Below, in pieces: positions 14,043 through 64,000 of a DNA stretch of 64,000 bases (the stretch's first letter is position 1; every line of letters begins with the position of its first letter). Where the stretch lies: the NCBI RefSeq assembly GCF_016026235.1, contig NZ_CP065613.1, one strand, 5' to 3'. The position numbers were made by a program, and so were the translations under genes. The DNA is from Escherichia coli (lineage in GTDB: Bacteria; Pseudomonadota; Gammaproteobacteria; Enterobacterales; Enterobacteriaceae). A model generated the notes under the pieces. It made no database searches. It saw only the letters and a program-made list of their open reading frames with translations, and was not told where the DNA came from.

Positions 14043-14852
14043 ATGTTCTTAATTAACGGTTATAAGCAGGAATCGCTGGCAGTAAGCGATCGGGCAACGC
14101 AGTTTGGTGATGGTTGTTTTACCACCGCCAGAGTTATCGACGGTAAAGTCAGTTTGTTATCGGCGCATATCCAGCGACTACAGGATGCTTGTCAGCGGTT
14201 GATGATTTCCTGTGACTTCTGGCCTCAGCTTGAACAAGAGATGAAAACGCTGGCAGCAGAACAGCAAAATGGTGTACTGAAAGTCGTGATCAGTCGTGGT
14301 AGTGGCGGGCGAGGGTACAGCACATTGAACAGTGGACCGGCAACGCGGATTCTCTCCGTTACGGCTTATCCTGCACATTACGACCGTTTGCGTAACGAAG
14401 GGATGACGTTGGCGCTAAGCTCGGTGCGGCTGGGGCGCAATCCTCATCTTGCAGGTATTAAACATCTTAATCGGCTTGAGCAAGTATTGATTCGCTCTCA
14501 TCTTGAGCAGACAAACGCTGATGAGGCGCTGGTCCTTGACAGCGAAGGGTGGGTTACGGAATGCTGTGCGGCTAATTTGTTCTGGCGGAAGGGCAACGTA
14601 GTTTATACGCCGCGCCTGGATCAGGCAGGTGTTAACGGCATTATGCGACAATTCTGTATCCGTTTGCTGGCACAATCCTCTTATCAGCTTGTCGAAGTGC
14701 AAGCCTCTCTGGAAGAGGCGTTGCAGGCAGATGAGATGGTTATTTGTAATGCGTTAATGCCAGTGATGCCCGTACGTGCCTGTGGCGATGTCTCCTTTTC
14801 GTCAGCAACGTTATATGAATATTTAGCCCCACTTTGTGAGCGCCCGAATTAG
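14043..14852 (+). CDS. pabC: Aminodeoxychorismate lyase PabC
   Basis: 269-aa ORF of the class IV aminotransferase fold, in the expected position before mltG. Confidence 0.88.
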
Positions 14853-14854
14853 TC

Positions 14855-15877
14855 ATGAAAAAAGTGTTATTGATAATCTTGTTATTGCTGGTGGTACTGG
14901 GTATCGCCGCTGGTGTGGGCGTCTGGAAGGTTCGCTATCTTGCCGACAGCAAATTGCTTATCAAAGAAGAGACGATATTTACCCTGAAGCCAGGGACCGG
15001 ACGTCTGGCGCTCGGTGAACAGCTTTATGCTGATAAGATCATCAATCGCCCAAGGGTTTTTCAATGGCTGCTGCGTATCGAACCGGATCTTTCTCACTTT
15101 AAAGCCGGGACTTACCGCTTTACACCGCAGATGACCGTGCGCGAGATGCTGAAATTGTTGGAAAGCGGTAAAGAAGCACAGTTCCCGCTGCGACTGGTAG
15201 AAGGGATGCGTCTGAGCGACTACCTCAAGCAATTGCGTGAGGCCCCGTATATCAAGCACACGCTGAGCGATGATAAGTACATCACCGTAGCGCAGGCACT
15301 TGAACTGGAAAATCCGGAGTGGATTGAAGGTTGGTTCTGGCCAGACACCTGGATGTATACCGCCAATACCACCGATGTCGCGTTACTCAAGCGAGCGCAC
15401 AAGAAAATGGTGAAAGCGGTCGATAGCGCTTGGGAAGGGCGTGCGGACGGTCTGCCCTATAAAGATAAAAACCAGCTGGTGACGATGGCATCAATTATCG
15501 AAAAAGAAACCGCCGTTGCCAGTGAACGCGATCAGGTTGCCTCGGTATTTATCAACCGTTTACGCATTGGTATGCGCCTGCAGACCGACCCGACCGTGAT
15601 TTACGGGATGGGAGAGCGTTATAATGGCAAACTTTCTCGTGCAGACCTGGAAACGCCGACAGCGTATAACACCTATACCATTACCGGTTTGCCGCCAGGT
15701 GCGATAGCTACGCCGAGGGCGGATTCGCTGAAGGCTGCTGCGCATCCGGCAAAAACGCCGTATCTCTATTTTGTGGCCGATGGTAAAGGTGGTCACACGT
15801 TTAATACCAATCTTGCCAGTCATAACAAGTCTGTGCAGGATTATCTGAAAGTGCTTAAGGAAAAAAATGCGCAGTAA
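14855..15877 (+). CDS. mltG: Endolytic murein transglycosylase MltG (YceG)
   Basis: 340-aa ORF with an N-terminal transmembrane helix ([24 protein letters not shown]) and YceG-like domain. Confidence 0.88.
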
Positions 15878-16508
15878 GTATATCGTCATTGAGGGGCTGG
15901 AAGGCGCAGGCAAAACTACCGCGCGTAATGTGGTGGTTGAGACGCTCGAGCAACTGGGTATCCGCGACATGGTTTTCACTCGGGAACCTGGCGGTACGCA
16001 ACTTGCCGAAAAGTTAAGAAGCCTGGTGCTGGATATCAAATCGGTAGGCGATGAAGTCATTACCGATAAAGCCGAAGTTCTGATGTTTTATGCCGCGCGC
16101 GTTCAACTGGTAGAAACGGTCATCAAACCTGCGCTGGCTAACGGCACCTGGGTGATTGGCGATCGCCACGATCTCTCCACTCAGGCGTATCAGGGCGGCG
16201 GACGTGGTATTGACCAACATATGCTGGCAACACTGCGTGATGCTGTTCTCGGGGATTTTCGCCCCGACTTAACGCTCTATCTCGATGTTACCCCGGAAGT
16301 TGGCTTAAAACGCGCGCGTGCGCGCGGCGAGCTGGATCGTATTGAGCAAGAGTCTTTCGATTTCTTTAATCGCACCCGCGCCCGCTATCTGGAACTGGCT
16401 GCACAAGATAAAAGTATTCATACCATTGATGCCACCCAGCCGCTGGAGGCCGTGATGGATGCAATCCGCACTACCGTGACCCACTGGGTGAAGGAGTTGG
16501 ACGCATGA
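15867..16508 (+). CDS. tmk: Thymidylate kinase
   Basis: 213-aa ORF with the P-loop GLEGAGKTT; overlaps the mltG stop. Confidence 0.93.
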
Positions 16509-17509
16509 GATGGTATCCATGGTTACGACCTGATTTCGAAAAACTGGTAGCCAGCTATCAGGCCGGAAGAGGTCACCATGCGCTACTCATTCAGGCGTTA
16601 CCGGGCATGGGCGATGATGCTTTAATCTACGCCCTGAGCCGTTATTTACTCTGCCAACAACCGCAGGGCCACAAAAGTTGCGGTCACTGTCGTGGATGTC
16701 AGTTGATGCAGGCTGGCACGCATCCCGATTACTACACCCTGGCTCCCGAAAAAGGGAAAAATACGCTGGGCATTGATGCGGTACGTGAGGTCACCGAAAA
16801 GCTGAATGAGCACGCACGCTTAGGTGGTGCGAAAGTTGTCTGGGTAACCGATGCTGCCTTACTGACCGACGCCGCGGCTAACGCATTGCTGAAAACGCTT
16901 GAAGAGCCACCAGCAGAAACCTGGTTTTTCCTGGCTACCCGCGAGCCTGAACGTTTACTGGCAACATTACGTAGTCGTTGTCGGTTACATTACCTTGCGC
17001 CGCCGCCGGAACAGTACGCCGTGACCTGGCTTTCACGCGAAGTGACAATGTCACAGGATGCATTACTTGCCGCATTGCGCTTAAGCGCCGGTTCGCCTGG
17101 CGCGGCACTGGCGTTGTTTCAGGGAGATAACTGGCAGGCTCGTGAAACATTGTGTCAGGCGTTGGCATATAGCGTGCCATCGGGCGACTGGTATTCGCTG
17201 CTGGCGGCCCTTAATCATGAACAAGCTCCGGCGCGTTTACACTGGCTGGCAACGTTGCTGATGGATGCGCTAAAACGCCATCATGGTGCTGCGCAGGTGA
17301 CCAATGTTGATGTGCCGGGCCTGGTCGCTGAACTGGCAAACCATCTTTCTCCCTCGCGCCTGCAGGCTATACTGGGGGATGTTTGCCACATTCGTGAACA
17401 GTTAATGTCTGTTACAGGCATCAACCGCGAGCTTCTCATCACCGATCTTTTACTGCGTATTGAGCATTACCTGCAACCGGGCGTTGTGCTACCGGTTCCT
17501 CATCTTTAA
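16505..17509 (+). CDS. holB: DNA polymerase III delta-prime subunit
   Basis: 334-aa [18 protein letters not shown] with a zinc-module CGHCRGC; start overlaps the tmk stop (ATGA). Confidence 0.9.
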
Positions 17510-17519
17510 GAGAGACATC

Positions 17520-18317
17520 ATGTTTTTAGTCGACTCACACTGCCATCTCGATGGTCTGGATTATGAATCTTTGCATAAGGACGTGGATGACGTTCTGGCG
17601 AAAGCCGCCGCACGCGATGTGAAATTTTGTCTGGCAGTCGCCACAACATTACCGGGTTATTTACACATGCGGGATCTGGTAGGCGAACGTGACAACGTCG
17701 TATTTTCTTGTGGCGTGCATCCACTCAACCAGAATGATCCCTACGATGTAGAAGATTTACGCCGTCTGGCGGCAGAAGAGGGTGTTGTAGCGCTGGGTGA
17801 AACCGGGCTGGATTATTATTACACACCGGAAACTAAAGTACGTCAGCAAGAGTCTTTCATCCATCATATCCAGATTGGTCGTGAACTGAACAAGCCGGTT
17901 ATCGTCCATACCCGTGACGCCCGTGCCGATACGCTGGCAATTCTGCGCGAAGAAAAAGTGACGGATTGCGGTGGCGTACTACACTGTTTTACAGAGGACA
18001 GAGAAACGGCGGGTAAATTACTGGATCTCGGATTTTACATCTCCTTTTCCGGCATTGTGACCTTCCGTAATGCGGAGCAACTGCGCGATGCTGCGCGTTA
18101 TGTCCCCCTGGATCGGTTACTGGTGGAAACTGACTCACCTTACCTTGCGCCGGTGCCGCATCGAGGAAAAGAGAATCAACCTGCGATGGTTCGTGACGTT
18201 GCAGAATATATGGCTGTGTTGAAAGGTGTTGCCGTTGAAGAACTGGCGCAGGTAACCACCGATAACTTCGCCCGTCTGTTTCACATCGACGCTTCCCGCC
18301 TTCAATCCATCCGTTGA
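17520..18317 (+). CDS. ycfH: TatD-family metal-dependent deoxyribonuclease YcfH
   Basis: Start set at [11 protein letters not shown] (metal-binding HxH motif) to give about 265 aa; the track ORF begins 20 codons earlier inside holB. Confidence 0.85.
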
Positions 18318-18492
18318 ATGAGTTTTTTTAAAGCTCGTAATTAATGGCTAAAACGAGTAAAGTTCACCGCCGAAAATTGGGCGGTGAATAACCACGTTTG
18401 AAATATTGTGACATATGTTTTGTCAAAATGTGCAACTTCTCCAATGATCTGAAGTTGAAACGTGATAGCCGTCAAACAAATTGGCACTGAAT

Positions 18493-18516
18493 TATTTTAC
18501 TCTGTGTAATAAATAA
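18493..18516 (+). promoter_or_regulatory. Candidate Mlc operator in the ptsG promoter region
   Basis: AT-rich imperfect palindrome ttattttactctgtgtaataaataaa about 100 bp upstream of the ptsG start; assignment is from recalled knowledge of Mlc control of ptsG, not verified. Confidence 0.4.
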
Positions 18517-18611
18517 AGGGCGCTTAGATGCCCTGTACACGGCGAGGCTCTCCCCCCTTGCCACGCGTGAGAACGTAAAAAAAGCACCCATACTCAGGAG
18601 CACTCTCAATT

Positions 18612-20045
18612 ATGTTTAAGAATGCATTTGCTAACCTGCAAAAGGTCGGTAAATCGCTGATGCTGCCGGTATCCGTACTGCCTATCGCAGGTATTCTGCT
18701 GGGCGTCGGTTCCGCGAATTTCAGCTGGCTGCCCGCCGTTGTATCGCATGTTATGGCAGAAGCAGGCGGTTCCGTCTTTGCAAACATGCCACTGATTTTT
18801 GCGATCGGTGTCGCCCTCGGCTTTACCAATAACGATGGCGTATCCGCGCTGGCCGCAGTTGTTGCCTATGGCATCATGGTTAAAACCATGGCCGTGGTTG
18901 CGCCACTGGTACTGCATTTACCTGCTGAAGAAATCGCCTCTAAACACCTGGCGGATACTGGCGTACTCGGAGGGATTATCTCCGGTGCGATCGCAGCGTA
19001 CATGTTTAACCGTTTCTACCGTATTAAGCTGCCTGAGTATCTTGGCTTCTTTGCCGGTAAACGCTTTGTGCCGATCATTTCTGGCCTGGCTGCCATCTTT
19101 ACTGGCGTTGTGCTGTCCTTCATTTGGCCGCCGATTGGTTCTGCAATCCAGACCTTTTCTCAGTGGGCTGCTTACCAGAACCCGGTAGTTGCGTTTGGCA
19201 TTTACGGTTTCATCGAACGTTGCCTGGTACCGTTTGGTCTGCACCACATCTGGAACGTACCTTTCCAGATGCAGATTGGTGAATACACCAACGCAGCAGG
19301 TCAGGTTTTCCACGGCGACATTCCGCGTTATATGGCGGGTGACCCGACTGCGGGTAAACTGTCTGGTGGCTTCCTGTTCAAAATGTACGGTCTGCCAGCT
19401 GCCGCAATTGCTATCTGGCACTCTGCTAAACCAGAAAACCGCGCGAAAGTGGGCGGTATTATGATCTCCGCGGCGCTGACCTCGTTCCTGACCGGTATCA
19501 CCGAGCCGATCGAGTTCTCCTTCATGTTCGTTGCGCCGATCCTGTACATCATCCACGCGATTCTGGCAGGCCTGGCATTCCCAATCTGTATTCTTCTGGG
19601 GATGCGTGACGGTACGTCGTTCTCGCACGGTCTGATCGACTTCATCGTTCTGTCTGGTAACAGCAGCAAACTGTGGCTGTTCCCGATCGTCGGTATCGGT
19701 TATGCGATTGTTTACTACACTATCTTCCGCGTGCTGATTAAAGCACTGGATCTGAAAACGCCGGGTCGTGAAGACGCGACTGAAGATGCAAAAGCGACAG
19801 GTACCAGCGAAATGGCACCGGCTCTGGTTGCTGCATTTGGTGGTAAAGAAAACATTACTAACCTCGACGCATGTATTACCCGTCTGCGCGTCAGCGTTGC
19901 TGATGTGTCTAAAGTGGATCAGGCCGGCCTGAAGAAACTGGGCGCAGCGGGCGTAGTGGTTGCTGGTTCTGGTGTTCAGGCGATTTTCGGTACTAAATCC
20001 GATAACCTGAAAACCGAGATGGATGAGTACATCCGTAACCACTAA
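18612..20045 (+). CDS. ptsG: Glucose-specific PTS enzyme IICB
   Basis: 477-aa [36 protein letters not shown] with a C-terminal IIB domain (CITRLR). Confidence 0.95.
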
Positions 20046-22987: not shown

Positions 22988-22989
22988 CG

Positions 22990-24002: not shown

Positions 24003-24022
<20 letters not shown>
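23381..24022 (+). CDS. lpoB: Penicillin-binding protein 1B activator LpoB
   Basis: 213-aa ORF from the ATG at 23381 with a lipobox (FLAGC) and a Pro-rich linker. Confidence 0.85.
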
Positions 24023-25863
<1,841 letters not shown>

Positions 25864-26429: not shown

Positions 26430-26565
26430 TGCCCTCGTCGCATCAGGTAACCTTGCCGGTACCTGATGCGCTCCGAATTCTGTAAGTCGGATAAGGCGTC
26501 CACGCCGCATCCGACAGTCGAGCATCAATGCCTGATGCGATGCTGCGCATCTTATCAGGACGACC
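26430..26565. repeat. REP/BIME cluster
   Basis: Several palindromic units (catcaggtaaccttgccggtacctgatgcg; gccgcatccgacagtcgagcatcaatgcctgatgcgatgctgcgcatc) in the ycfP-ndh gap. Confidence 0.6.
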
Positions 26566-36084: not shown

Positions 36085-39333
<3,249 letters not shown>

Positions 39334-40288: not shown

Positions 40289-41110
40289 ATGCTGTCGCGT
40301 CGGGGTCATCGGTTAAGTCGTTTTCGTAAAAATAAACGCCGCCTGCGCGAGCGTTTGCGTCAGCGTATTTTTTTCAGAGATAAAGTGGTGCCGGAAGCAA
40401 TGGAAAAACCAAGAGTACTCGTACTGACAGGGGCAGGAATTTCTGCGGAATCAGGTATTCGTACCTTTCGCGCCGCAGATGGCCTGTGGGAAGAACATCG
40501 GGTTGAAGATGTGGCAACGCCGGAAGGTTTCGATCGCGATCCTGAACTGGTGCAAGCGTTTTATAACGCCCGTCGTCGACAGCTGCAGCAGCCAGAAATT
40601 CAGCCTAACGCCGCGCATCTTGCGCTGGCTAAACTGCAAGACGCCCTCGGCGATCGCTTTTTGCTGGTAACGCAGAATATAGACAACCTGCATGAACGCG
40701 CAGGTAATACCAATGTCATTCATATGCATGGGGAATTGCTGAAAGTTCGTTGTTCGCAAAGTGGTCAGGTTCTCGACTGGACCGGAGACGTTACGCCAGA
40801 AGATAAATGCCATTGTTGCCAGTTCCCGGCACCCTTGCGCCCGCACGTCGTTTGGTTTGGCGAAATGCCACTCGGCATGGATGAAATTTATATGGCGTTG
40901 TCGATGGCTGATATTTTCATTGCCATTGGTACTTCCGGGCATGTTTATCCGGCGGCTGGGTTTGTTCACGAAGCGAAACTGCATGGCGCGCACACCGTGG
41001 AACTGAATCTCGAACCAAGTCAGGTCGGTAATGAATTTGCCGAGAAATATTACGGCCCGGCAAGCCAGGTGGTGCCTGAGTTTGTTGAAAAGTTGCTGAA
41101 GGGATTATAA
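40289..41110 (+). CDS. cobB: NAD-dependent protein deacylase CobB (sirtuin)
   Basis: Sirtuin motifs [10 protein letters not shown] and TQNIDNLHE plus a zinc-ribbon Cys pair; 273-aa long form with an Arg-rich N-terminal extension. Confidence 0.9.
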
Positions 41111-41114
41111 AGCA

Positions 41115-41165
41115 GGAAGCATTGCCTGATGCGCTACGCTTATCAGGTCTACAAGCGGACCACAA
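41115..41165. repeat. REP-like palindromic unit
   Basis: gcctgatgcgctacgcttatcaggtctac type palindrome between convergent cobB and potD. Confidence 0.5.
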
Positions 41166-41265
41166 TACCGACGAAAGAGCGGGATAAAACTTTACTGTCC
41201 TGACTCATTAGCCACATCCTTGCTAACTAAAAAACGGGCGGTAATACCACCGCCCGTTTGCTGAA

Positions 41266-42312
41266 TTAACGTCCTGCTTTCAGCTTCTGATAATACTCTT
41301 CATAAATGCTACTGGCTGCGCCAACGTCATTTTGCCATTCACCATTTTTAATGGTTTCAGCATCCGGGTAGAGCGTTTTATCGTTCGCCACTTCTGGGCT
41401 TAACAGCTTACGCGCCGCAAGGTTTGGCGTTGGATAACCGATAGTTTCGGCAACCTGTTTTGCCACATCCGGGCGCAGCAGGAAGTTGATCAATTTCAGC
41501 GCGCCTTCTTTGTTTTTGGCATTTGCCGGGATCGCCAGGCTGTCCATCCAGAATATGCCGCCTTCTTTCGGCCACACCACGTCAATAGGCGTACCCGCCT
41601 GGCGTGCAACGAAAGCAGAACCGTTCCAGATCATGCCGAGGTTAACTTCGCCTTCCATGTACGGGTTAGCCGGGTTATCGGAGTTAAACGCTGCGACGTT
41701 TGGCATCAGTTTTTTCAGCTCGTTATATGCAGCTTCAATCTCTTTCGGATCGGTGGTGTTACCGGAGTAGCCCAGCTTACGCAGCGCCATCTGGAACACT
41801 TCACGGGCATCGTCGGTCAACAGCAGGCTGCCTTTGTACTCTGGCTTCCACAGATCGGCCCAGCTGGTGACAGATTTTGGATCCACCGCATCACCGTTAA
41901 CACCAATCGCCGTCGCACCCCAGATATACGGAATGGAGTAATCGTTATTCGGGTCAAACGGCTTATTGAGCATGTCTGGATCGAGATTGCTGAAGTTCGT
42001 TAACTTCGACTTGTCGATCTTCTGGATCATCCCTTCTTTACGCATTTTATCGACGTAATAGGTTGAAGGAACCACCAGGTCATAGGCACCGTCTTTGTAC
42101 GTTTTCAGCTTGGCATACATGGTTTCGTTCGACTCGTAAGTCGAATAGATAACCTTAATACCGGTTTCTTTGGTGAACTGTTCAAGCAGTCCTGGCGGCA
42201 CGTACTCGGTCCAGTTGTAGAAATACAGCGTGTTGTTGTCATCGGCGTGAGCGGCGCTCATGCCCAGTGCCAGAGCACCCGCCGCGAGCAGGTGGCGTGA
42301 CCATTTTTTCAT
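41266..42312 (-). CDS. potD: Spermidine/putrescine periplasmic binding protein PotD
   Basis: 348-aa ORF with a signal peptide (MKKWSRHLLAAGALALGMSAAHA). Confidence 0.93.
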   Translation of the reverse strand: MKKWSRHLLAAGALALGMSAAHADDNNTLYFYNWTEYVPPGLLEQFTKETGIKVIYSTYESNETMYAKLKTYKDGAYDLVVPSTYYVDKMRKEGMIQKIDKSKLTNFSNLDPDMLNKPFDPNNDYSIPYIWGATAIGVNGDAVDPKSVTSWADLWKPEYKGSLLLTDDAREVFQMALRKLGYSGNTTDPKEIEAAYNELKKLMPNVAAFNSDNPANPYMEGEVNLGMIWNGSAFVARQAGTPIDVVWPKEGGIFWMDSLAIPANAKNKEGALKLINFLLRPDVAKQVAETIGYPTPNLAARKLLSPEVANDKTLYPDAETIKNGEWQNDVGAASSIYEEYYQKLKAGR

Positions 42313-43103
42313 TTAACGTCCCCTGTGTTACCTTTCGTTTTATCACGAGCAATAAGCTGGCTGGCAATAACCATCACCAGCGACAGCACCAGTAATATGG
42401 TTGCCAGCGCGTTAACTTCCGGCGATACGCCGACTTTGACCATCGAATAAATTTTTAACGGCAGAATTTCATAACTCGGCCCGGTGACGAACGAAGAAAC
42501 CACCACATCGTCCATCGACAGGGTAAAGCTTAACACCCAGCCCGCCGCCACCGCTGGCATTGCCAGTGGCAGAATGATTTTTCGCAGAATGGTAAATTCG
42601 CTGGCACCGAGATCTTTCGCCGCTTCCAGCATTCGCACGTCAAAACCTTTCAGGCGCGAATACACCGTCACCACCACAAATGGCAGGCAGAAGGTGATAT
42701 GCGAGAACAGCAGCGACCAGAAGCCAAGCTGAATACCCAGCAGCATAAACAGCACCAGCAGCGAAATTGCCATCACGATATCTGGTGACATCATTACCAC
42801 AAACAGCATTCCGCTAACGAACGGCTTACCACGAAAGCGATAACGGTACAGTGCAACTGCCGTCAGTGAACCGATAAGAGTAGCAAACGTCGCCGAAAAC
42901 ACCGCCATTGTTAGTGAATGCTGCGCTGCCTGTAACAGGCTGTCGTTGTTCATCAGCAAGCTATACCATTTAGTGGTAAAACCCTGCCAGTTGATGCCAA
43001 AGCGCGAGCTGTTAAAGGAGTTCACAATCAAAATAATGATTGGGATATACAGGTACGCGTAGATAGCGGTCATAAAACCGCCGCGAAGCAGTCGACCGAT
43101 CAT
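42309..43103 (-). CDS. potC: Spermidine/putrescine ABC permease PotC
   Basis: 264-aa permease; overlaps the potD start by 4 bp. Confidence 0.92.
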   Translation of the reverse strand: MIGRLLRGGFMTAIYAYLYIPIIILIVNSFNSSRFGINWQGFTTKWYSLLMNNDSLLQAAQHSLTMAVFSATFATLIGSLTAVALYRYRFRGKPFVSGMLFVVMMSPDIVMAISLLVLFMLLGIQLGFWSLLFSHITFCLPFVVVTVYSRLKGFDVRMLEAAKDLGASEFTILRKIILPLAMPAVAAGWVLSFTLSMDDVVVSSFVTGPSYEILPLKIYSMVKVGVSPEVNALATILLVLSLVMVIASQLIARDKTKGNTGDVK

Positions 43104-50197: not shown

Positions 50198-51571
<1,374 letters not shown>

Positions 51572-53870: not shown

Positions 53871-53879
53871 TTTGCATCC

Positions 53880-55956: not shown

Positions 55957-55978
55957 ACACTACATGTGTTAAATATTT

Positions 55979-56010
55979 AAACGGGCGTATAACACGCCCG
56001 TTGTTTTATT
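55979..56010 (+). terminator. Intrinsic terminator after icd
   Basis: Stem aaacgggcg/cgcccgtt with loop tataaca, followed by gttttattt. Confidence 0.7.
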
Positions 56011-56309
56011 TATGTGGATATTATTAATAGCATATCGAGCATATTTATATAAAACCCATTACTTGAGCCCATATGGGCATATTTTTATAATACAACTCTT
56101 ATGCAAACATTTATTTGTTATTTCGCTTTCTCCTGGAGGACACTCTTGACTGCTTTTGAGTAAACTCCATAAATTCTTGTTGAATGGTGCAATGTTATAA
56201 ATAGTTATAGGATATTCTTTATCCTTAAGGATAATACCAGGCTTAACCAGTGTAGGTAATGCTGCCAACTTACTGATTTAGTGTATGATGGTGATTTTAA
56301 GGTGCTTGC

Positions 56310-56585
56310 GTGGCTTCCATTTCCATCAGATGTCCTTCCTGCTCCGCTACTGAAGGCGTGGTGCGTAACGGCAAAAGCACTGCCGGACATCAGCGCTATC
56401 TCTGCTCTCATTGCCGTAAAACATGGCAACTACAGTTCACTTACACCGCCTCTCAGCCCGGTACGCACCAGAAAATCATTGATATGGCCATGAATGGCGT
56501 CGGATGTCGCGCCAGTGCACGCATTATGGGCGTTGGCCTCAACACGGTTTTACGTCACTTAAAAAACTCAGGCCGCAGTCGGTAA
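56310..56585 (+). CDS. insA: IS1 InsA (transposition inhibitor / N-terminal part of the transposase)
   Basis: 91-aa [43 protein letters not shown]... with a zinc-finger Cys cluster; the A6C slippery site TTAAAAAAC lies at 56559-56567. Confidence 0.93.
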
Positions 56586-57007
56586 CCTCGCGCATACAAC
56601 CGGGCAGTGATGTGATTGTCTGCGCTGAAATGGACGAACAGTGGGGCTACGTCGGTGCTAAATCACGTCAGCGCTGGCTGTTTTACGCGTATGACAGGAT
56701 ACGGAGGACGGTTGTGGCGCACGTCTTCGGTGAACGCACTCTGGCCACACTGGAGCGTCTTCTGAGCCTGCTGTCGGCCTTTGAGGTCGTGGTATGGATG
56801 ACGGATGGCTGGCCGCTGTATGAATCACGCCTGAAGGGAAAGCTGCACGTTATCAGCAAGCGTTACACTCAGCGCATTGAGCGACATAATCTGAATCTGA
56901 GACAACATCTGGCAAGGCTGGGACGGAAGTCACTGTCGTTCTCAAAATCGGTGGAGCTGCATGACAAGGTCATCGGGCATTATCTGAACATAAAACACTA
57001 TCAGTAA
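56504..57007 (+). CDS. insB: IS1 InsB reading frame, expressed as the InsAB' transposase by -1 frameshifting
   Basis: 167-aa -1-frame ORF overlapping the insA 3' end and containing the DDE-like catalytic region. Confidence 0.9.
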
Positions 57008-57854
57008 GTTGGAGTCATTACCACCAGTGTAAATATACTTCCAGGAGGAAGAAATATAGTAGATTGATACCAGATAATCATTTTCATATCACCCCATATG
57101 GCTGAAAAAGATATGCCGCATGTAGGTTGAATTACCGTGTCAATTACTACCCACTTCATTTGTTATGTCTTATCCCACGGTATTTAATATAGTTCATTTG
57201 GATGTTCATTTCTTTATTTTGCATATGAGTATATTACCCCTTCAAAAAATAAATTAATTAAAACGATTGCTTATATAAAACAAAATTTAAAGCAAGGAAT
57301 CTCAATGGATGTTAAACAAAATGAGATTTAGTGAAAACAATAAATTATTCACTTCGTTTTAGATTTGTTTAGCTATAATGTTATACATTCAAATGACTGA
57401 CCATCCTGTAATTAAAACATAGCCTTTATGCTACTTTGTGCCAATTTGCTAAACATTATGGTTGCCTTTTTATATAACGATAATAATGAATATAAGCATG
57501 ACATGAGAATAAGGTTTCAATTTTTGAGTTATATAGGAAAGGTTTAACCTGTTCCTGGCTAAAATACATATAACTGGATGATGACTAAACCAAAACACAT
57601 GTGCGTTAAGTATTGAAACGGGCGTATGGCACGCCCGTTGTTTTTATAAATATATTAAACGTTATGAAATAACGTATAGAAAGTCAAGTGATCACATTTC
57701 AAATATCAATTTGATAGTATTGGCCTGGTGATTATTTATGGGTAGCAATAAAAGGACAGTATTTATCATCCATAGGGATAGTCTCTGTACTTTTATTCCC
57801 ATTATGCTAATGCCTTACTGAATTATGAAGCATTTCTTAAGCATCCAACTTTAG

Positions 57855-58259
57855 CTAGATTAATGGTTTATTATTTTCTACATCTTCAATATATAAAAGC
57901 GTATTATCAATGGCGTAGTAACTGCGTTTGTTATGATTAACATCAGTAACCCAACGGAAAACGCCCGCGTCTGCCAGTGTTGAACAGTATTCCCGAAATG
58001 TAGATTTTCCGCAAATATGAAGCAATGCGGCCTCTTTTATTTTAGCAGGGTTCTTGGTCGTACTAACTTTTAACAGGTTCCTGGTTCCTCTTAATAACAA
58101 AACCGTGTCATCGTGAGTAATAATTCTGATGTTATCCGTAGCCAGATAATAAATGTAATGTGCAATACGGTGATGTTTTAATTCTGAATAAAACCAGGAG
58201 AAGTTTTGCTCTTTTCTCACTTGCTCAAACATCTTTTGAAAAACAACGACCTGATCCAT
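57855..58259 (-). CDS. ycgX: DUF1398-family protein YcgX
   Basis: 134-aa ORF MDQVVVFQKMFEQVRKEQNFSWFYSELKHH flanked by AT-rich DNA, upstream of bluR; identity from recalled gene order. Confidence 0.7.
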   Translation of the reverse strand: MDQVVVFQKMFEQVRKEQNFSWFYSELKHHRIAHYIYYLATDNIRIITHDDTVLLLRGTRNLLKVSTTKNPAKIKEAALLHICGKSTFREYCSTLADAGVFRWVTDVNHNKRSYYAIDNTLLYIEDVENNKPLI

Positions 58260-58479
58260 CAGGATAATAACCTCTTGTTAGTTGTGAGACTGCGTAGTGT
58301 GCACGATCGGTTTTACCACTTCAATCTGGTCTGTTCTTTGGCTGTGATATGTACAGAGTGTGATAGAGGGATTACCTGAATTCTCCCGGTGAGCATTTTG
58401 CAACGGACCAGCTCCGGTACAAATGCTGTTGTGGGTTCAGATTATAACATTCTGTCTAAGGGGCAGGATAAAGGTGAAA

Positions 58480-59211
58480 TTAGGGGGCATGAAAGATGAC
58501 TTTATAACCTTGCTCACCCCAGTGTTGTAAAAGTTCATTTTGCCTTCTCGTTGGTGCCATGCCTGTCCAGACAATCAATGTTTGCGTCGGGAACAGTTCT
58601 GGGCGCGGTGATTCAATGGGATCAGCAAGAACAGAAATGTGCCATCCTGACAATGATAAACGCCATGCTTCCAGCCACAATCGTGCTCTCTCTTCAACAT
58701 TCCATGCCATCAGAATGGCTTCTTTACCGGGCTTACGGCGCATTTCGAAAAGCGAGGCTGCTGCGTATTCAATTAGTGCGCCGTCAAACATACTGCTCAT
58801 AATGCGGGAGGTGTTGTGATCAAGCACGAGACGCTGGCGAACAGGAAGGTAAACATGATTAATCAATTGATCTACTGGGTACTCTCGACCCAGTGAAATA
58901 ATTCTCGCGCGTAGTTTGGCAGGATTAGCCATACGAAGAATTGACATCATCTCTTCTTGCAGGCGGCTCCAGTCATCTTCCGTATCCTGGCTGGTGGTTT
59001 CCAGTAATGCTTTAACTTTGCCTACAGGGACGCCATTACTTATCCAACGCTTGATCTCTTCGATGCGTTGTATGTCTTCTTCATCAAAGAGTCGGTGTCC
59101 GCCTTCACTGCGCTGTGGTTTTAACAAACCGTAGCGGCGTTGCCAGGCCCGGAGAGTGACAGGATTAATCCCGCAACGTTCAGCAACATCACCAATGCTG
59201 TAATAAGCCAC
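58480..59211 (-). CDS. bluR: MerR-family transcriptional repressor BluR (YcgE)
   Basis: 243-aa ORF with an N-terminal MerR HTH ([32 protein letters not shown]). Confidence 0.88.
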
Positions 59212-59405
59212 AATTCCTCCTTGCGGTCATAAATCTCCGTCGCCTGTACACGACCCAATAATACTTTGTACAATATACGCTAAAATTGTACAAAGTATAA
59301 ATAAGATTTCAGCTAAATTGGATGAAACATTATTTTTAATGTGGATTAAATTAAAGCATAACGTATTCATTTTCACGATGATTTACTGAAATCATGTGCT
59401 GAAAA

Positions 59406-60617
59406 TTATTTTTTTTCTGGCCACGCAACTGAAGGGATACCATTCAATTTAGCTTTAGCAAACAGATCCCCCTGAAACATCTCAATTCCTGCGGATTCAA
59501 GCCACATCCACTCTTCTGGTGTTGCCACGCCCATAGCAGAGACTTGAATTTCAAGTGATGTACAGCATTTTATGATCGCCTGAATAATTGCCTGCCGTGG
59601 TCCGCTTTTATGAACATTGGTAATCAATTCCTGACTGATTTTAATTCTGTCAGGCTGGAAGCGTGACAGGAGTAACAAACCAGCAAAACCTGCGCCAAAA
59701 TGATCAATTGCTACACTGATACCGGCAGCCTTTAGCGATTTAACCGCTTCGGCAAACTCATCAAACCGAGATATGACTTCACTTTCAGTAAATTCAACGA
59801 TGATTTGTTCAGGCACCAGAGCATTGGCCTTTATTTCATCAAGTAAAAAAGAGACTGCGTCAGGCTCGTTAACCAGGGTCATAGGTAATAGATTGATTGA
59901 AATCATTTTATCACCGAGCTCAAGTGCGTGTGCCATCGCGAATGCAAGCGCCTTACTTTTAAGATCCGCTGTGTAGATTTCCCCGTCTTTACGCTGCCCA
60001 ACCGCTATAGCTGACGGGCTGTCTTCATTTTTTTGCACAATGGCTTCAAAAGCGATTATCCGCCGCGATAAGGGATCAACAATAGGATGAAAGGCAAAGT
60101 GGTCGTTTATAGTTGGTGAAAGGGTACAGGAATCAAGTTCTTTATCAGATCTGTCAGCGATAAAAAGCCAGGAGTCTTCAGCAGGAATCTCGAAATAGGT
60201 TGATTGTTCGGTTGCAAGGACAAAAGTACGAAAAAATTGTAGCGCTCTGTCATCATAAGTTAGCTGAAATTTTGATGTGCCTTTGTCGAATACGGCCTGT
60301 AAAACGTCATCTCGCTCGTGTAGGCGTAAATCAAATAATTCCATTCCCGCTTTGCCAAAACGGCGAGCAGGCGCGTAATCGCACAGCAGCTCAACAATAT
60401 TATAGTGCCGTGGATCCTGGCATATAGCCCGATATATCATTTTAACCTGTTCTTCCGGACCTTCCAGAAGCTGGAAAAAATGAGAACCATTAAACAGTAA
60501 GATCCCTGTTACGTCAGACTGCATGTTCCTGCGATTTGCAATCGAAACCATTTCTTCGATTTTTTTGACAGGTTCGTCGTCACGTATATGGCTACGATAA
60601 ATAAGGGTGGTAAGCAT
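59406..60617 (-). CDS. bluF: Blue-light sensor BluF (YcgF): BLUF domain plus degenerate EAL domain
   Basis: Start set at MLTTLIYRSHIRDD to give 403 aa; BLUF N-terminal domain (VTGILLFNGSHFFQLLEGP) and an EAL-like C-terminus; the track ORF is 57 codons longer. Confidence 0.88.
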   Translation of the reverse strand: MLTTLIYRSHIRDDEPVKKIEEMVSIANRRNMQSDVTGILLFNGSHFFQLLEGPEEQVKMIYRAICQDPRHYNIVELLCDYAPARRFGKAGMELFDLRLHERDDVLQAVFDKGTSKFQLTYDDRALQFFRTFVLATEQSTYFEIPAEDSWLFIADRSDKELDSCTLSPTINDHFAFHPIVDPLSRRIIAFEAIVQKNEDSPSAIAVGQRKDGEIYTADLKSKALAFAMAHALELGDKMISINLLPMTLVNEPDAVSFLLDEIKANALVPEQIIVEFTESEVISRFDEFAEAVKSLKAAGISVAIDHFGAGFAGLLLLSRFQPDRIKISQELITNVHKSGPRQAIIQAIIKCCTSLEIQVSAMGVATPEEWMWLESAGIEMFQGDLFAKAKLNGIPSVAWPEKK

Positions 60618-60930
60618 TAACTGTCCAGGGTAATGGGAGTGGCGAGAGTAAGACGGTAACAGACATATCTTCCGGTGTCTTTCTTTTAATACCAAAACAT
60701 AACTGTTTCTTTGCATTGATAGAAAATGGAAAAAGTTGAACACGAGTTGGCGAAAAATCTTGTATAGTTTGTCAGTTAAATGATGCAATATGTTTTATCA
60801 TAACGTATTGTTTTATATGTATTAGCACTAATTGCAAAAAATTAATTTATCATTCTGTACACATATTTCGTACAAGTTTGCTATTGTTACCTCACTTAAC
60901 ATTGATTAACATTTTTAACAGAGGCGTAGC

Positions 60931-61167
60931 ATGCATCAAAATTCAGTGACTTTAGATTCTGCGGGAGCAATCACTCGTTACTTTGCAAAAGCTAACTTGC
61001 CTACTCAGCAGGAAACTCTCGGGGAAATTGTGACTGAGATTTTGAAAGATGGACGTAATCTGAGTCGAAAGTCGCTTTGTGCCAAACTTCTTTGCCGACT
61101 GGAACAAGCGACAGGGGAAGAGGAACAGAAACATTATAATGCACTAATTGGGTTGCTTTTTGAATAA
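60931..61167 (+). CDS. ycgZ: Small protein YcgZ (connector of the bluR-controlled operon)
   Basis: 78-aa ORF divergent from bluF, first gene of a four-gene small-protein operon. Confidence 0.8.
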   Translation: MHQNSVTLDSAGAITRYFAKANLPTQQETLGEIVTEILKDGRNLSRKSLCAKLLCRLEQATGEEEQKHYNALIGLLFE

Positions 61168-61209
61168 TGCAACAGCCTGATTATTTAACAGGTTAGCTAT
61201 GAAGTCGTT

Positions 61210-61482
61210 ATGAAGACATCTGATAATGAACGTATAAAATATGAAATTACTGGCCAGGCGGTGCTCCAGATACTGCGCATGAAGATAAATTTTTCGGTGC
61301 AGACTCTTATTAAGCAATTACTCGTAATGAAATCGGCTGAGGAAAATGCTTTCCGACGAGATTTAATTGACAGCATAATTCGTGATTTTAGCAACAGTGA
61401 TACAGGAGGGCCAAACCGAAGAACAGCGATAGCTGACAATAAAAGTATGTTCAATGGTAAGAAAATAAACAGAATACATTAA
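61210..61482 (+). CDS. ymgA: Small protein YmgA
   Basis: 90-aa ORF 42 bp after ycgZ. Confidence 0.8.
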   Translation: MKTSDNERIKYEITGQAVLQILRMKINFSVQTLIKQLLVMKSAEENAFRRDLIDSIIRDFSNSDTGGPNRRTAIADNKSMFNGKKINRIH

Positions 61483-61510
61483 AATTTCATAAGTAAGATG
61501 AGAGGTTACC

Positions 61511-61777
61511 ATGCTTGAAGATACTACAATTCATAATGCAATAACTGATAAAGCGTTATCAAGTTACTTTCGCAGTTCGGGTAATTTGTTAGAAGAAGAG
61601 TCAGCAGTGTTAGGGCAGGCTGTGACTAATTTAATGCTTTCAGGCGATAATGTTAATAATAAAAATATTATCTTAAGTCTGATACACTCCCTGGAAACAA
61701 CAAGTGATATTCTCAAAGCTGATGTGATCAGAAAAACACTGGAAATCGTGTTGCGATACACAGCGGATGACATGTAA
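61511..61777 (+). CDS. ariR: Regulator of acid resistance and biofilm AriR (YmgB)
   Basis: 88-aa [34 protein letters not shown]. Confidence 0.8.
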
Positions 61778-61889
61778 CTTTTAATTATTAAGTATAAGTT
61801 TATAGAAAACTCATTCATCTTATTTTTGTCTGTCGCTTTAGACTATACACAGCATAATTTTATTGGGTTAATATTTCTACGAGGCTGAC

Positions 61890-62138
61890 ATGAATAATTC
61901 AATCCCAGAGAGATTTATTTTTCAATGTGCTTTGTTTAAAAATCTCGAGAGGGAGGTGTTCATGACGCATGGGTATGTTGATAGTCATATTATTGATCAG
62001 GCTTTACGCTTGCGTTTAAAAGATGAAACTAGTGTGATTCTTTCTGATCTCTATCTGCAAATCTTGCAGTACATTGAAATGCATAAGACTACACTAACGG
62101 ATATCATTATTAATGACAGGGAATCCGTGCTCTCTTAG
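61890..62138 (+). CDS. ymgC: Small protein YmgC
   Basis: 82-aa ORF, last gene of the ycgZ-ymgA-ariR-ymgC cluster. Confidence 0.75.
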   Translation: MNNSIPERFIFQCALFKNLEREVFMTHGYVDSHIIDQALRLRLKDETSVILSDLYLQILQYIEMHKTTLTDIIINDRESVLS

Positions 62139-62473
62139 AACTTGAGTAAGGTTATAGAATAAACATCAGCTGTATCATCATGCTGGTGCAAAGTGAGCAT
62201 TTCAGGCGTTATGCTTTCTTAATATATCCGCAATATCAGGGGGCAAACAGGAATGGAGAGCGCTCGTTTTCCATTCTTGACGCCTGATATCCCACCTAAA
62301 TTGTTTAATTCTGCCTACATTGTGCTCAATAATTAATAGGTTAGATGAAGATGGAGAAAATTTTATCTTCGGCGTGGATATTTCTTATGCTCTCTACCAT
62401 GCTCTCTGTAGACGCCAGCGCGAGCGAATGAACGTCATTTTCATGTATTAAACCCTTTGTTCGGGACAAGCGA

Positions 62474-63997
62474 ATGCGCAATACACTCATACCCATCCTC
62501 GTTGCGATATGCTTGTTTATTACCGGTGTCGCTATTTTGAACATCCAGCTCTGGTATTCCGCAAAAGCAGAGTACCTGGCGGGAGCAAGATATGCCGCCA
62601 ACAATATCAATCATATACTTGAAGAAGCGTCACAGGCGACTCAAACAGCGGTTAACATTGCCGGGAAGGAATGCGACCTCGAGGAGCAATATCAGCTTGG
62701 CACTGAAGCAGCTCTGAAACCTCACCTGCGCACAATCATCATTCTCAAACAGGGAATAGTCTGGTGTACATCCCTGCCTGGGAATCGGGTCCTGCTGTCT
62801 CGTATTCCTGTTGTCCCGGACAGTAATTTGCTGTTGGCTCCGGCAATCGACACCGTTAATAGATTACCTATTCTGCTCTATCAGAGCCAATTTGCAGATA
62901 CGCGCATTTTGGTTACGATAAGTGATCAGCATATTCGCGGGGCGCTTAATGTACCCTTGAAAGGGGTAAGGTATGTATTACGCGTGGCGGATGACATTAT
63001 TGGACCTACGGGTGATGTGATGACGCTTAATGGACATTATCCCTATGCCGAGAAGGTTCACTCCACAAAATATCATTTCACTATTATCTTTAACCCGCCA
63101 CCACTCTTTAGCTTCTACAGACTTATCGATAAAGGCTTTGGGATTTTGATATTTATTCTGTTAATCGCCTGCGCCGCTGCCTTCCTGCTAGATAGGTATT
63201 TCAATAAAAGCGCAACGCCTGAAGAGATCCTGCGGCGGGCTATAAATAATGGGGAGATCGTCCCTTTTTACCAACCAGTGGTGAATGGTCGGGAAGGGAC
63301 ATTGCGGGGAGTTGAGGTGTTAGCCCGCTGGAAACAACCTCACGGTGGATATATTTCACCCGCGGCATTTATTCCACTTGCTGAAAAATCCGGATTAATC
63401 GTTCCGCTTACGCAAAGCCTGATGAATCAGGTTGCCAGACAGATGAACGCTATCGCGAGTAAATTGCCGGAAGGTTTTCATATTGGAATTAATTTTAGCG
63501 CCTCGCATATTATTTCGCCGACGTTTGTCGACGAGTGCTTAAATTACCGTGACAGTTTTACCCGCCGCGATTTAAACCTCGTTCTGGAAGTTACCGAGCG
63601 TGAGCCATTAAATGTTGATGAAAGTCTGGTTCAGCGGTTGAACATTCTGCATGAAAATGGTTTTGTCATCGCGCTGGATGATTTCGGTACTGGCTACTCA
63701 GGGCTTTCTTATCTGCATGACCTGCATATTGATTATATCAAAATTGATCACAGTTTCGTTGGCCGCGTCAACGCAGACCCAGAATCAACCCGAATTCTGG
63801 ATTGTGTATTGGATATGGCGCGTAAACTTTCGATCAGTATCGTCGCTGAAGGTGTCGAAACGAAAGAACAACTTGATTATCTGAACCAAAATAATATCAC
63901 ATTTCAGCAGGGTTATTATTTCTATAAACCTGTTACATACATCGACCTGGTCAAAATTATCCTTTCTAAACCGAAGGTGAAGGTTGTGGTTGAGTGA
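62474..63997 (+). CDS. pdeG: Cyclic-di-GMP phosphodiesterase PdeG (YcgG): CSS-motif sensor plus EAL domain
   Basis: 507-aa ORF with an N-terminal transmembrane helix, periplasmic Cys-containing sensor domain, second transmembrane helix and a C-terminal EAL domain (EVLARW...DDFGTGYS). Confidence 0.88.
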   Translation: MRNTLIPILVAICLFITGVAILNIQLWYSAKAEYLAGARYAANNINHILEEASQATQTAVNIAGKECDLEEQYQLGTEAALKPHLRTIIILKQGIVWCTSLPGNRVLLSRIPVVPDSNLLLAPAIDTVNRLPILLYQSQFADTRILVTISDQHIRGALNVPLKGVRYVLRVADDIIGPTGDVMTLNGHYPYAEKVHSTKYHFTIIFNPPPLFSFYRLIDKGFGILIFILLIACAAAFLLDRYFNKSATPEEILRRAINNGEIVPFYQPVVNGREGTLRGVEVLARWKQPHGGYISPAAFIPLAEKSGLIVPLTQSLMNQVARQMNAIASKLPEGFHIGINFSASHIISPTFVDECLNYRDSFTRRDLNLVLEVTEREPLNVDESLVQRLNILHENGFVIALDDFGTGYSGLSYLHDLHIDYIKIDHSFVGRVNADPESTRILDCVLDMARKLSISIVAEGVETKEQLDYLNQNNITFQQGYYFYKPVTYIDLVKIILSKPKVKVVVE

Positions 63998-64000
63998 AAA

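Follow-up and report, generated by a model that had tools for sequence, protein, structure and literature searches.

Eight short gene overlaps in a stretch of the Escherichia coli chromosome: very probably ordinary operon junctions, with plausible but uneven translational coupling

A 64,000-nucleotide (nt) stretch of the chromosome of a non-K-12 Escherichia coli strain (contig NZ_CP065613.1; the whole stretch is referred to as the window) contains eight pairs of neighbouring genes that share 1 to 20 bases on the same strand: mltG/tmk, tmk/holB, lpoB/thiK, lolC/lolD, lolD/lolE, potB/potC, potC/potD and phoP/phoQ. These are very probably the ordinary short overlaps of neighbouring genes in well-known E. 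coli operons. The overlaps are real, their pattern is already known and nothing about them lies outside established patterns; the tmk/holB overlap has been described explicitly in the literature. Most of the downstream start codons are correct, and those junctions that were compared across genera (mltG/tmk, tmk/holB and lpoB/thiK) are conserved, as is the Shine-Dalgarno sequence of holB. Translational coupling is plausible but uneven across the eight pairs.

Eight same-strand overlaps and their frequency

Gene order in the window is colinear with that of strain MG1655 from flgK to icd. The overlaps were scored with the curated MG1655 RefSeq coding sequences and start codons, which were transferred onto the window by blastn; the annotation of MG1655 positions 1,138,000-1,204,000 maps colinearly to window bases 1-55956, each gene being matched over its full length at 96-100% nucleotide identity. 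Of 5426 complete E. coli genomes, 5424 match bases 14000-19000 at an identity of 95-100%. Pfam domains were present in the eight proteins tested, and the junction partners are real protein-coding genes. With the MG1655 starts we reproduced every overlap size given in a preliminary description of this DNA:

15867-15877, plus strand: mltG/tmk overlap, 11 nt (ATGCGCAGTAA)
16505-16508, plus strand: tmk/holB overlap, 4 nt (ATGA, the holB start codon combined with the tmk stop codon)
24003-24022, plus strand: lpoB/thiK overlap, 20 nt (thiK GTG start at 24003)
37388-37395, plus strand: lolC/lolD overlap, 8 nt (ATGAATAA)
38089, plus strand: lolD/lolE overlap, 1 nt (TAATG)
43100-43103, minus strand: potB/potC overlap, 4 nt (ATGA)
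42309-42312, minus strand: potC/potD overlap, 4 nt (ATGA)
49359, minus strand: phoP/phoQ overlap, 1 nt (TGATG)

The interval to which that description had assigned the pattern, 15867-17520, takes in no more than tmk, holB and one base of ycfH, its first; six of the eight junctions are located outside it. The operons concerned are taken to be pabC-mltG-tmk-holB-ycfH, hinT-ycfL-lpoB-thiK-nagZ-ycfP, lolCDE, potABCD and phoPQ. In a sequence-based scan of 13900-18700, terminator-like and promoter-like sites were no more frequent than expected from shuffled sequence. An Rfam scan found no RNA families at any of the junctions.

Eight of the 38 co-directional gene pairs in the window overlap, compared with ~15% genome-wide (PMC5318159; P = 0.20). 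Spacings of -8 to +6 nt occur in nine of the 38 pairs, and 9.0 are expected from the genome-wide count of 707 among 2987 (PMC10666635). An enrichment of the window for overlaps was rejected, the frequency being that of the genome background. The preliminary description was correct in calling such overlaps typical of operons. Strong enrichment is known for the -4, -1 and -8 spacing classes, both genome-wide and across all prokaryotes (PMC12548453, PMC10666635), with -8 being the third commonest spacing genome-wide (PMC12548453). Its further wording, "tightly co-regulated", suits lolCDE, potBCD and phoPQ, the products of which work together (five pairs with functionally linked partners: LolC/D/E, PotB/C/D and PhoP/Q), and does not suit mltG/tmk/holB and lpoB/thiK (three pairs), whose products MltG, Tmk and HolB, and LpoB and ThiK, have unrelated functions.

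Several further neighbours in the window are separated by very short gaps (pabC/mltG, +2, 14853-14854; hinT/ycfL, +2, 22988-22989; purB/hflD, +3, 51569-51571; holB/ycfH, +10, 17510-17519; thiK/nagZ, +10, 24828-24837; rluE/nudJ, +9, 53871-53879). Spacings of +9 to +12, a peak described as E. coli-specific (Huber et al. 2023, PMC10666635), are found in five of the 38 window pairs versus 7% genome-wide.

Downstream start codons and conserved junctions

The preliminary description had cautioned that overlap sizes depend on the choice of start codon. This caveat is largely resolved, since seven of the eight downstream starts are robust and only that of lolE is ambiguous (-1 versus +5). A start was taken as supported by published initiation-site mapping, by cross-genus conservation or by the absence of a workable alternative. 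Statements on mapping refer to Table S2 of the INRI-seq study of Hör et al. (PMC9825163), including the Ribo-RET columns that it reproduces; the INRI-seq fragments span -30 to +153. In this table, the initiation sites of tmk (INRI-seq in 5/5 replicates, and Ribo-RET), lolD (4/5, and Ribo-RET), potC (5/5) and potD (5/5) coincide exactly with the overlapping start codons. For holB, thiK, lolE and phoQ it holds zero signal from either INRI-seq or Ribo-RET, methods which overall detect ~70% and ~18% of annotated starts, respectively. Among these genes, lolD is the only one present in the TRAINSPOTTER N-terminomics supplement (PMC13245402), where its entry derives from INRI-seq.

It is extremely unlikely that the overlaps are annotation artefacts, with the true downstream starts lying further 3′ and the genes not overlapping at all. 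The silence of holB, thiK, lolE and phoQ in both datasets would fit such a reading, and the exact mapping of the other four starts contradicts it. Moreover, tmk, holB, potD and phoQ have no protein-compatible alternative: the next in-frame start is codon 22 in tmk (P-loop at residues 9-16, Pfam domain from residue 8), codon 35 in holB, with loss of the conserved N-terminus, codon 18 in potD, within the signal peptide, and codon 19 in phoQ, within the first transmembrane helix. In thiK, an in-frame TTG at codon 14 of the E. coli gene could be taken for the true start. This candidate was rejected, as the codon is ATC, CTC or ATT in three other genera, whereas the GTG is kept, as are T10, R11 and D12. 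ThiK homologues with 59-71% identity conserve M1, N6, T10, R11 and D12, all of which lie upstream of the TTG. The lpoB/thiK overlap is likewise 20 nt in the called genes of Salmonella bongori, Klebsiella quasipneumoniae and Enterobacter chengduensis, in which neither the GTG nor the tcaggtaaag before it varies. Such cross-genus conservation supports the GTG as the probable thiK start.

The lolE start is the sole ambiguous one of the eight, being either the first ATG or a second one at codon 3 (38095). The latter is better placed relative to the GGAG motif, which is 8 nt away from it and 2 nt away from the annotated ATG, and its use would leave a 5-nt gap in place of the 1-nt overlap; both spacings, -1 and +5, lie inside the coupling-permissive range.

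We examined the mltG-tmk-holB-ycfH locus for conservation. Its features are as follows:

14855-15877, plus strand: mltG (yceG), the upstream partner; 98.1% identity to MG1655 b1097 over the full length; Pfam YceG, E = 4.9e-81
15857-15861, plus strand: tmk Shine-Dalgarno sequence AAGGA, inside the mltG coding sequence; duplex with the 16S rRNA 3′ end, -6.1 kcal/mol
15867-16508, plus strand: tmk (dTMP kinase); ATG at 15867, 11 nt inside mltG; Pfam Thymidylate_kin from residue 8
16491-16496, plus strand: holB Shine-Dalgarno sequence AAGGAG (GGAG core, 16493-16496), in the C-terminal codons of tmk; duplex, -8.3 kcal/mol
16505-17509, plus strand: holB (DNA polymerase III delta prime subunit); Pfam DNA_pol3_delta2, HolB_lid and DNApol3-delta_C
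17520-18317, plus strand: ycfH (TatD-family hydrolase); begins 10 nt past the holB stop, without overlap; Pfam match

HolB aligns with PDB entry 1a5t over residues 1-334 with a single substitution, I90V, and the ycfH start is mapped by INRI-seq as well as by Ribo-RET (PMC9825163). The conservation scan covered 80 loci, one genome per species and all within the Enterobacteriaceae, with Tmk proteins 84-98% identical. At mltG/tmk, each of the 76 scorable species has an 11-nt overlap; at tmk/holB, 77 of 79 share 4 nt; and holB and ycfH are 10 nt apart in 67 of 77. The two exceptions at tmk/holB have a 1-nt overlap (TAATG) and both belong to Atlantibacter. In these two genomes (L078 and L081), which could not be scored automatically for mltG/tmk, mltG reads on to a later stop and overlaps tmk by 23 nt. 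The overlapped state is kept in all 79 scorable species, including those in which its length has changed. In both Atlantibacter loci the altered overlaps, retained at both junctions, are located at positions 1995-2017 (mltG/tmk) and 2630 (tmk/holB).

The tmk Shine-Dalgarno motif cttAAGGAaaaaaATG is nearly invariant among the Enterobacteriaceae species. The C-terminal tail of Tmk contains varying residues in the pattern W-V-x-E-Q-x-A-stop, and the GGAG of holB at -12 to -9 from the ATG, which lies in the codons of this tail, is 95-100% conserved in 77 species. Position -12 is the third base of the codon at -14 to -12, which specifies K, Q, E, A, R or G depending on the species, yet it is G in 99%. 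The Glu codon of the tail is GAG in 95% of species; in E. coli, GAA is the commoner Glu codon. Judged by these patterns, the tmk tail is under nucleotide-level constraint for the embedded holB ribosome-binding site.

Genome recoding has touched the same junction. Napolitano et al. (bioRxiv 10.1101/069385) report that changing holB codon 2 from AGA to CGU converts the tmk stop into Cys and adds 14 residues, and that this replacement failed; in the window sequence, loss of the tmk stop yields the identical 14-codon extension. The same authors succeeded by inserting a 3-nt stop codon ahead of the holB ATG, which reduced the overlap and left the cells viable (bioRxiv 10.1101/069385). The 4-nt form of the tmk/holB junction is thus dispensable for viability, because the rebuilt junction with its reduced overlap is viable.

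A second initiation site was observed at the mltG/tmk junction. According to Table S3 of the INRI-seq study, a GTG at 15851-15853, 16 nt 5′ of the tmk ATG, initiates in vitro in 5/5 replicates and shows no initiation in vivo. This GTG is in the mltG frame, and on an isolated fragment it would give a 9-codon peptide that ends at the mltG stop and overlaps the tmk start.

Translation across the junctions

The overlaps had been called consistent with translational coupling. As an interpretation this is sensible but too sweeping, and it is partly supported: the geometry is permissive and internal Shine-Dalgarno sequences are common, the available data are mixed, and an overlap alone is no proof. 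At all overlapping pairs the downstream start region sits within the upstream coding sequence. For seven of the eight downstream starts we found a Shine-Dalgarno sequence inside the upstream gene (in E. coli such a motif, 5-10 nt before the start, is usual but not universal), with duplex energies of -4.9 to -8.4 kcal/mol. No such motif precedes phoQ, for which the duplex energy is +0.1 kcal/mol. Six pairs fall within the spacing range of efficient coupling (~-8 to +6), and mltG/tmk (-11) and lpoB/thiK (-20) fall outside it.

The ribosome-binding site of each downstream gene, which consists of a Shine-Dalgarno sequence and a start codon and at phoQ of just the start codon, is contained in the upstream gene, within its final few dozen bases. 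A ribosome ending the upstream gene therefore stops at a distance of 1 to 20 nt from the start that follows. The terminating ribosome might then either reinitiate or melt local RNA structure, which would allow a fresh 30S subunit to bind.

Measurements in the potABCD operon point in both directions. The translation efficiencies of potB and potC are 0.310 and 0.313, and the ribosome density of potD is 615 against 94.8 for potC, a ~6.5-fold difference (both from Supplementary File 1 of PMC5318159). From this difference it follows that at least ~85% of potD initiations are independent of ribosomes leaving potC. Of the two ATGA junctions in this operon, potB/potC looks coupled one-to-one and potC/potD plainly does not. 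Window genes in the dataset of Burkhardt et al. 2017 are limited to tmk, ycfH, lolD, potA-D and phoP. In the INRI-seq table, tmk, lolD, potC and potD initiate on isolated fragments, from which the upstream gene is missing.

The predicted cost of opening the start region from -15 to +12, computed by in-silico folding in the native context, separates the two sets of starts. The INRI-seq-active group, which comprises the tmk, lolD, potC and potD starts, has values of 5.9, 7.6, 8.1 and 6.8 kcal/mol; the silent starts have 13.5 (holB), 11.8 (thiK), 17.9 (lolE) and 12.1 (phoQ) kcal/mol. The separation is complete (exact Mann-Whitney p = 0.029, n = 8). The AUG of lolE lies inside a predicted 11-bp hairpin. 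These values suggest that the accessible starts of tmk, lolD, potC and potD may be self-initiating, with coupling optional and accounting for a minor share at potD, and that the occluded or motif-less starts of holB, lolE, thiK and phoQ are likely candidates for dependence on upstream translation. Very tentatively, opening energy might even distinguish two mechanistic classes, with holB, lolE, thiK and phoQ translated only via the upstream ribosome and tmk, lolD, potC and potD translated independently; we regard this stronger form as doubtful. If it were true, the low-abundance products of holB, lolE, thiK and phoQ would be held at a fixed fraction of their neighbours, and a strong Shine-Dalgarno sequence such as the AAGGAG of holB would be a reinitiation guide and not a de novo entry site.

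The holB start combines several of these properties. Its strong AAGGAG is located 8 nt before the ATG and its template is adequately represented, at 70.5 counts per million (CPM), yet it gave signal in 0/5 INRI-seq replicates and none in Ribo-RET, as listed in the INRI-seq study. The predicted opening energy of the holB start region (16491-16507) is high, 12.7-13.5 kcal/mol.

A number of points limit the case for coupling at these junctions, and for a structural division of the starts in particular. Direct coupling experiments on the eight pairs did not turn up in our literature search, nor did anything relevant on phoP-phoQ or lolDE coupling. Overlaps of 11 and 20 nt belong to the range in which reporter studies show weak or no coupling (PMC12548453). 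The structural argument consists of in-silico folding of eight sequences, and the separation weakens to p = 0.11 when the actual INRI constructs are folded. With z-scores of -1.65 and -0.78, holB and lolE fold no better than shuffled sequence, and a specific conserved structure at either junction was dropped as a candidate for the same reason. Four silent starts out of eight are unremarkable (P = 0.20), as ~30% of all annotated starts in the INRI-seq table are silent. In addition, the lolE template is scarce in that dataset, at 8.3 CPM (PMC9825163).

Two further readings of the overlaps differ in the role that they assign to coupling. Tight, obligatory coupling of all eight pairs by termination-reinitiation, which would fix the protein ratios, is highly improbable. 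It could draw on the 4- and 1-nt overlaps, which are the most efficient reinitiation geometries, and on the interacting partners encoded by lolCDE, potBC and phoPQ, a class that is 4.5-fold enriched among closely spaced pairs (PMC10666635). A potC to potD density ratio of 6.5 is, however, impossible by reinitiation alone, so that the reading is already contradicted for potD; the de novo initiation of tmk, lolD, potC and potD on isolated fragments in the INRI-seq table, the two overlaps beyond the efficient range and the uncoupled bioBF pair, which has a 4-nt overlap, all stand against it as well. That pair is the one exception among five native E. coli pairs with 4-nt overlaps that were tested, the other four being coupled (Huber et al. 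2019, PMC6728339).

At the other extreme, the overlaps may be neutral by-products of compaction and of stop- and start-codon turnover, with independent Shine-Dalgarno initiation and no real role for coupling. This is possible, although we do not favour it. It would accommodate the four starts that initiate without their upstream gene in the INRI-seq data, the excess of ribosomes on potD, the unrelated products of mltG/tmk/holB and lpoB/thiK, and the genome-wide finding that overlapping pairs are about as variable in relative translation as non-overlapping ones (PMC5318159). The drift of junction lengths in Atlantibacter (from 11 to 23 nt at mltG/tmk and from 4 to 1 nt at tmk/holB) and the tolerance of the tmk/holB junction to rebuilding point the same way. 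It is harder to reconcile with phoQ, which has no Shine-Dalgarno motif and yet is the functional, essential partner of phoP, with the matched translation efficiencies of potB and potC, with the coupling of four of the five tested native pairs, and with an overlapped state that, despite changes in length, is retained throughout the 79 scorable species. In the reading that we prefer, ordinary operon overlaps with uneven coupling, the exact overlap length would not be critical.

Other window features, known systems and implications

Outside the junctions, the window differs from K-12 at several places. The ycfZ and ymfA genes, which in K-12 occupy ~1.25 kb between cobB and potD and overlap each other by 4 nt, are absent here, leaving only ~136-155 bp between cobB and potD (41110-41266). 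The cobB gene itself (40289-41129) carries one extra base relative to K-12 (841 versus 840 nt), and its open reading frame stops early at 41110, giving 273 versus 279 residues and an altered C-terminal tail. Past icd, the e14 prophage that follows in K-12 is absent; bases 55957-64000 instead correspond to a region annotated as ycgX, bluR, bluF and pdeG in other strains, with one IS1 copy inside. Similarity searches returned tens of thousands of extra matches because of this IS1 copy. Rfam matches above the gathering score, all distant from the gene junctions, were the RNase E 5′ untranslated region element (5135-5471, minus strand), the small RNA SraB (7332-7500, plus strand) and naRNA4 (26485-26561, plus strand).

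The junctions resemble several known systems. The tmk/holB, potB/potC and potC/potD pairs have the same 4-nt ATGA and internal Shine-Dalgarno sequence as the ATGA class of Huber et al. (PMC6728339, PMC10666635). The reporter-assayed pairs of that class are different from those of the window, and potD here initiates mostly independently; such geometry is no guarantee of coupling, because bioBF in the Huber et al. set is uncoupled. The 1-nt stop-start overlap of phoP/phoQ (TGATG) and lolD/lolE (TAATG) also occurs at trpB-trpA (TGATG), which is the classic case of translational coupling (Oppenheim and Yanofsky 1980; Aksoy et al. 1984; as cited in later work). For efficient expression trpA is reported to need the ribosome-binding sequence that it keeps (Das and Yanofsky 1984), whereas phoQ has none detectable.

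The remaining overlaps, lolC/lolD (8 nt), mltG/tmk (11 nt) and lpoB/thiK (20 nt), are all of length 3n+2 and belong to the known -8/-11/-14 series (PMC12548453). Reinitiation drops steeply in efficiency past a 4-nt overlap, and synthetic constructs with a 25-nt overlap show none; the coat and lysis genes of phage MS2 exemplify coupling through the unfolding of RNA (PMC12548453). On our analysis, reinitiation would be less likely at the 11- and 20-nt overlaps than either independent initiation or unfolding of the RNA through the upstream ribosome.

Taken together, these findings are of practical value for annotation and for the engineering of genomes. For a non-K-12 strain they confirm seven of the eight downstream starts and flag that of lolE as ambiguous. 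The last codons of tmk hold the conserved ribosome-binding site of the essential holB gene, which makes synonymous recoding there risky; the failed replacement of Napolitano et al. occurred at this very junction. An overlap between neighbouring genes should not be taken as proof that their translation is coupled.

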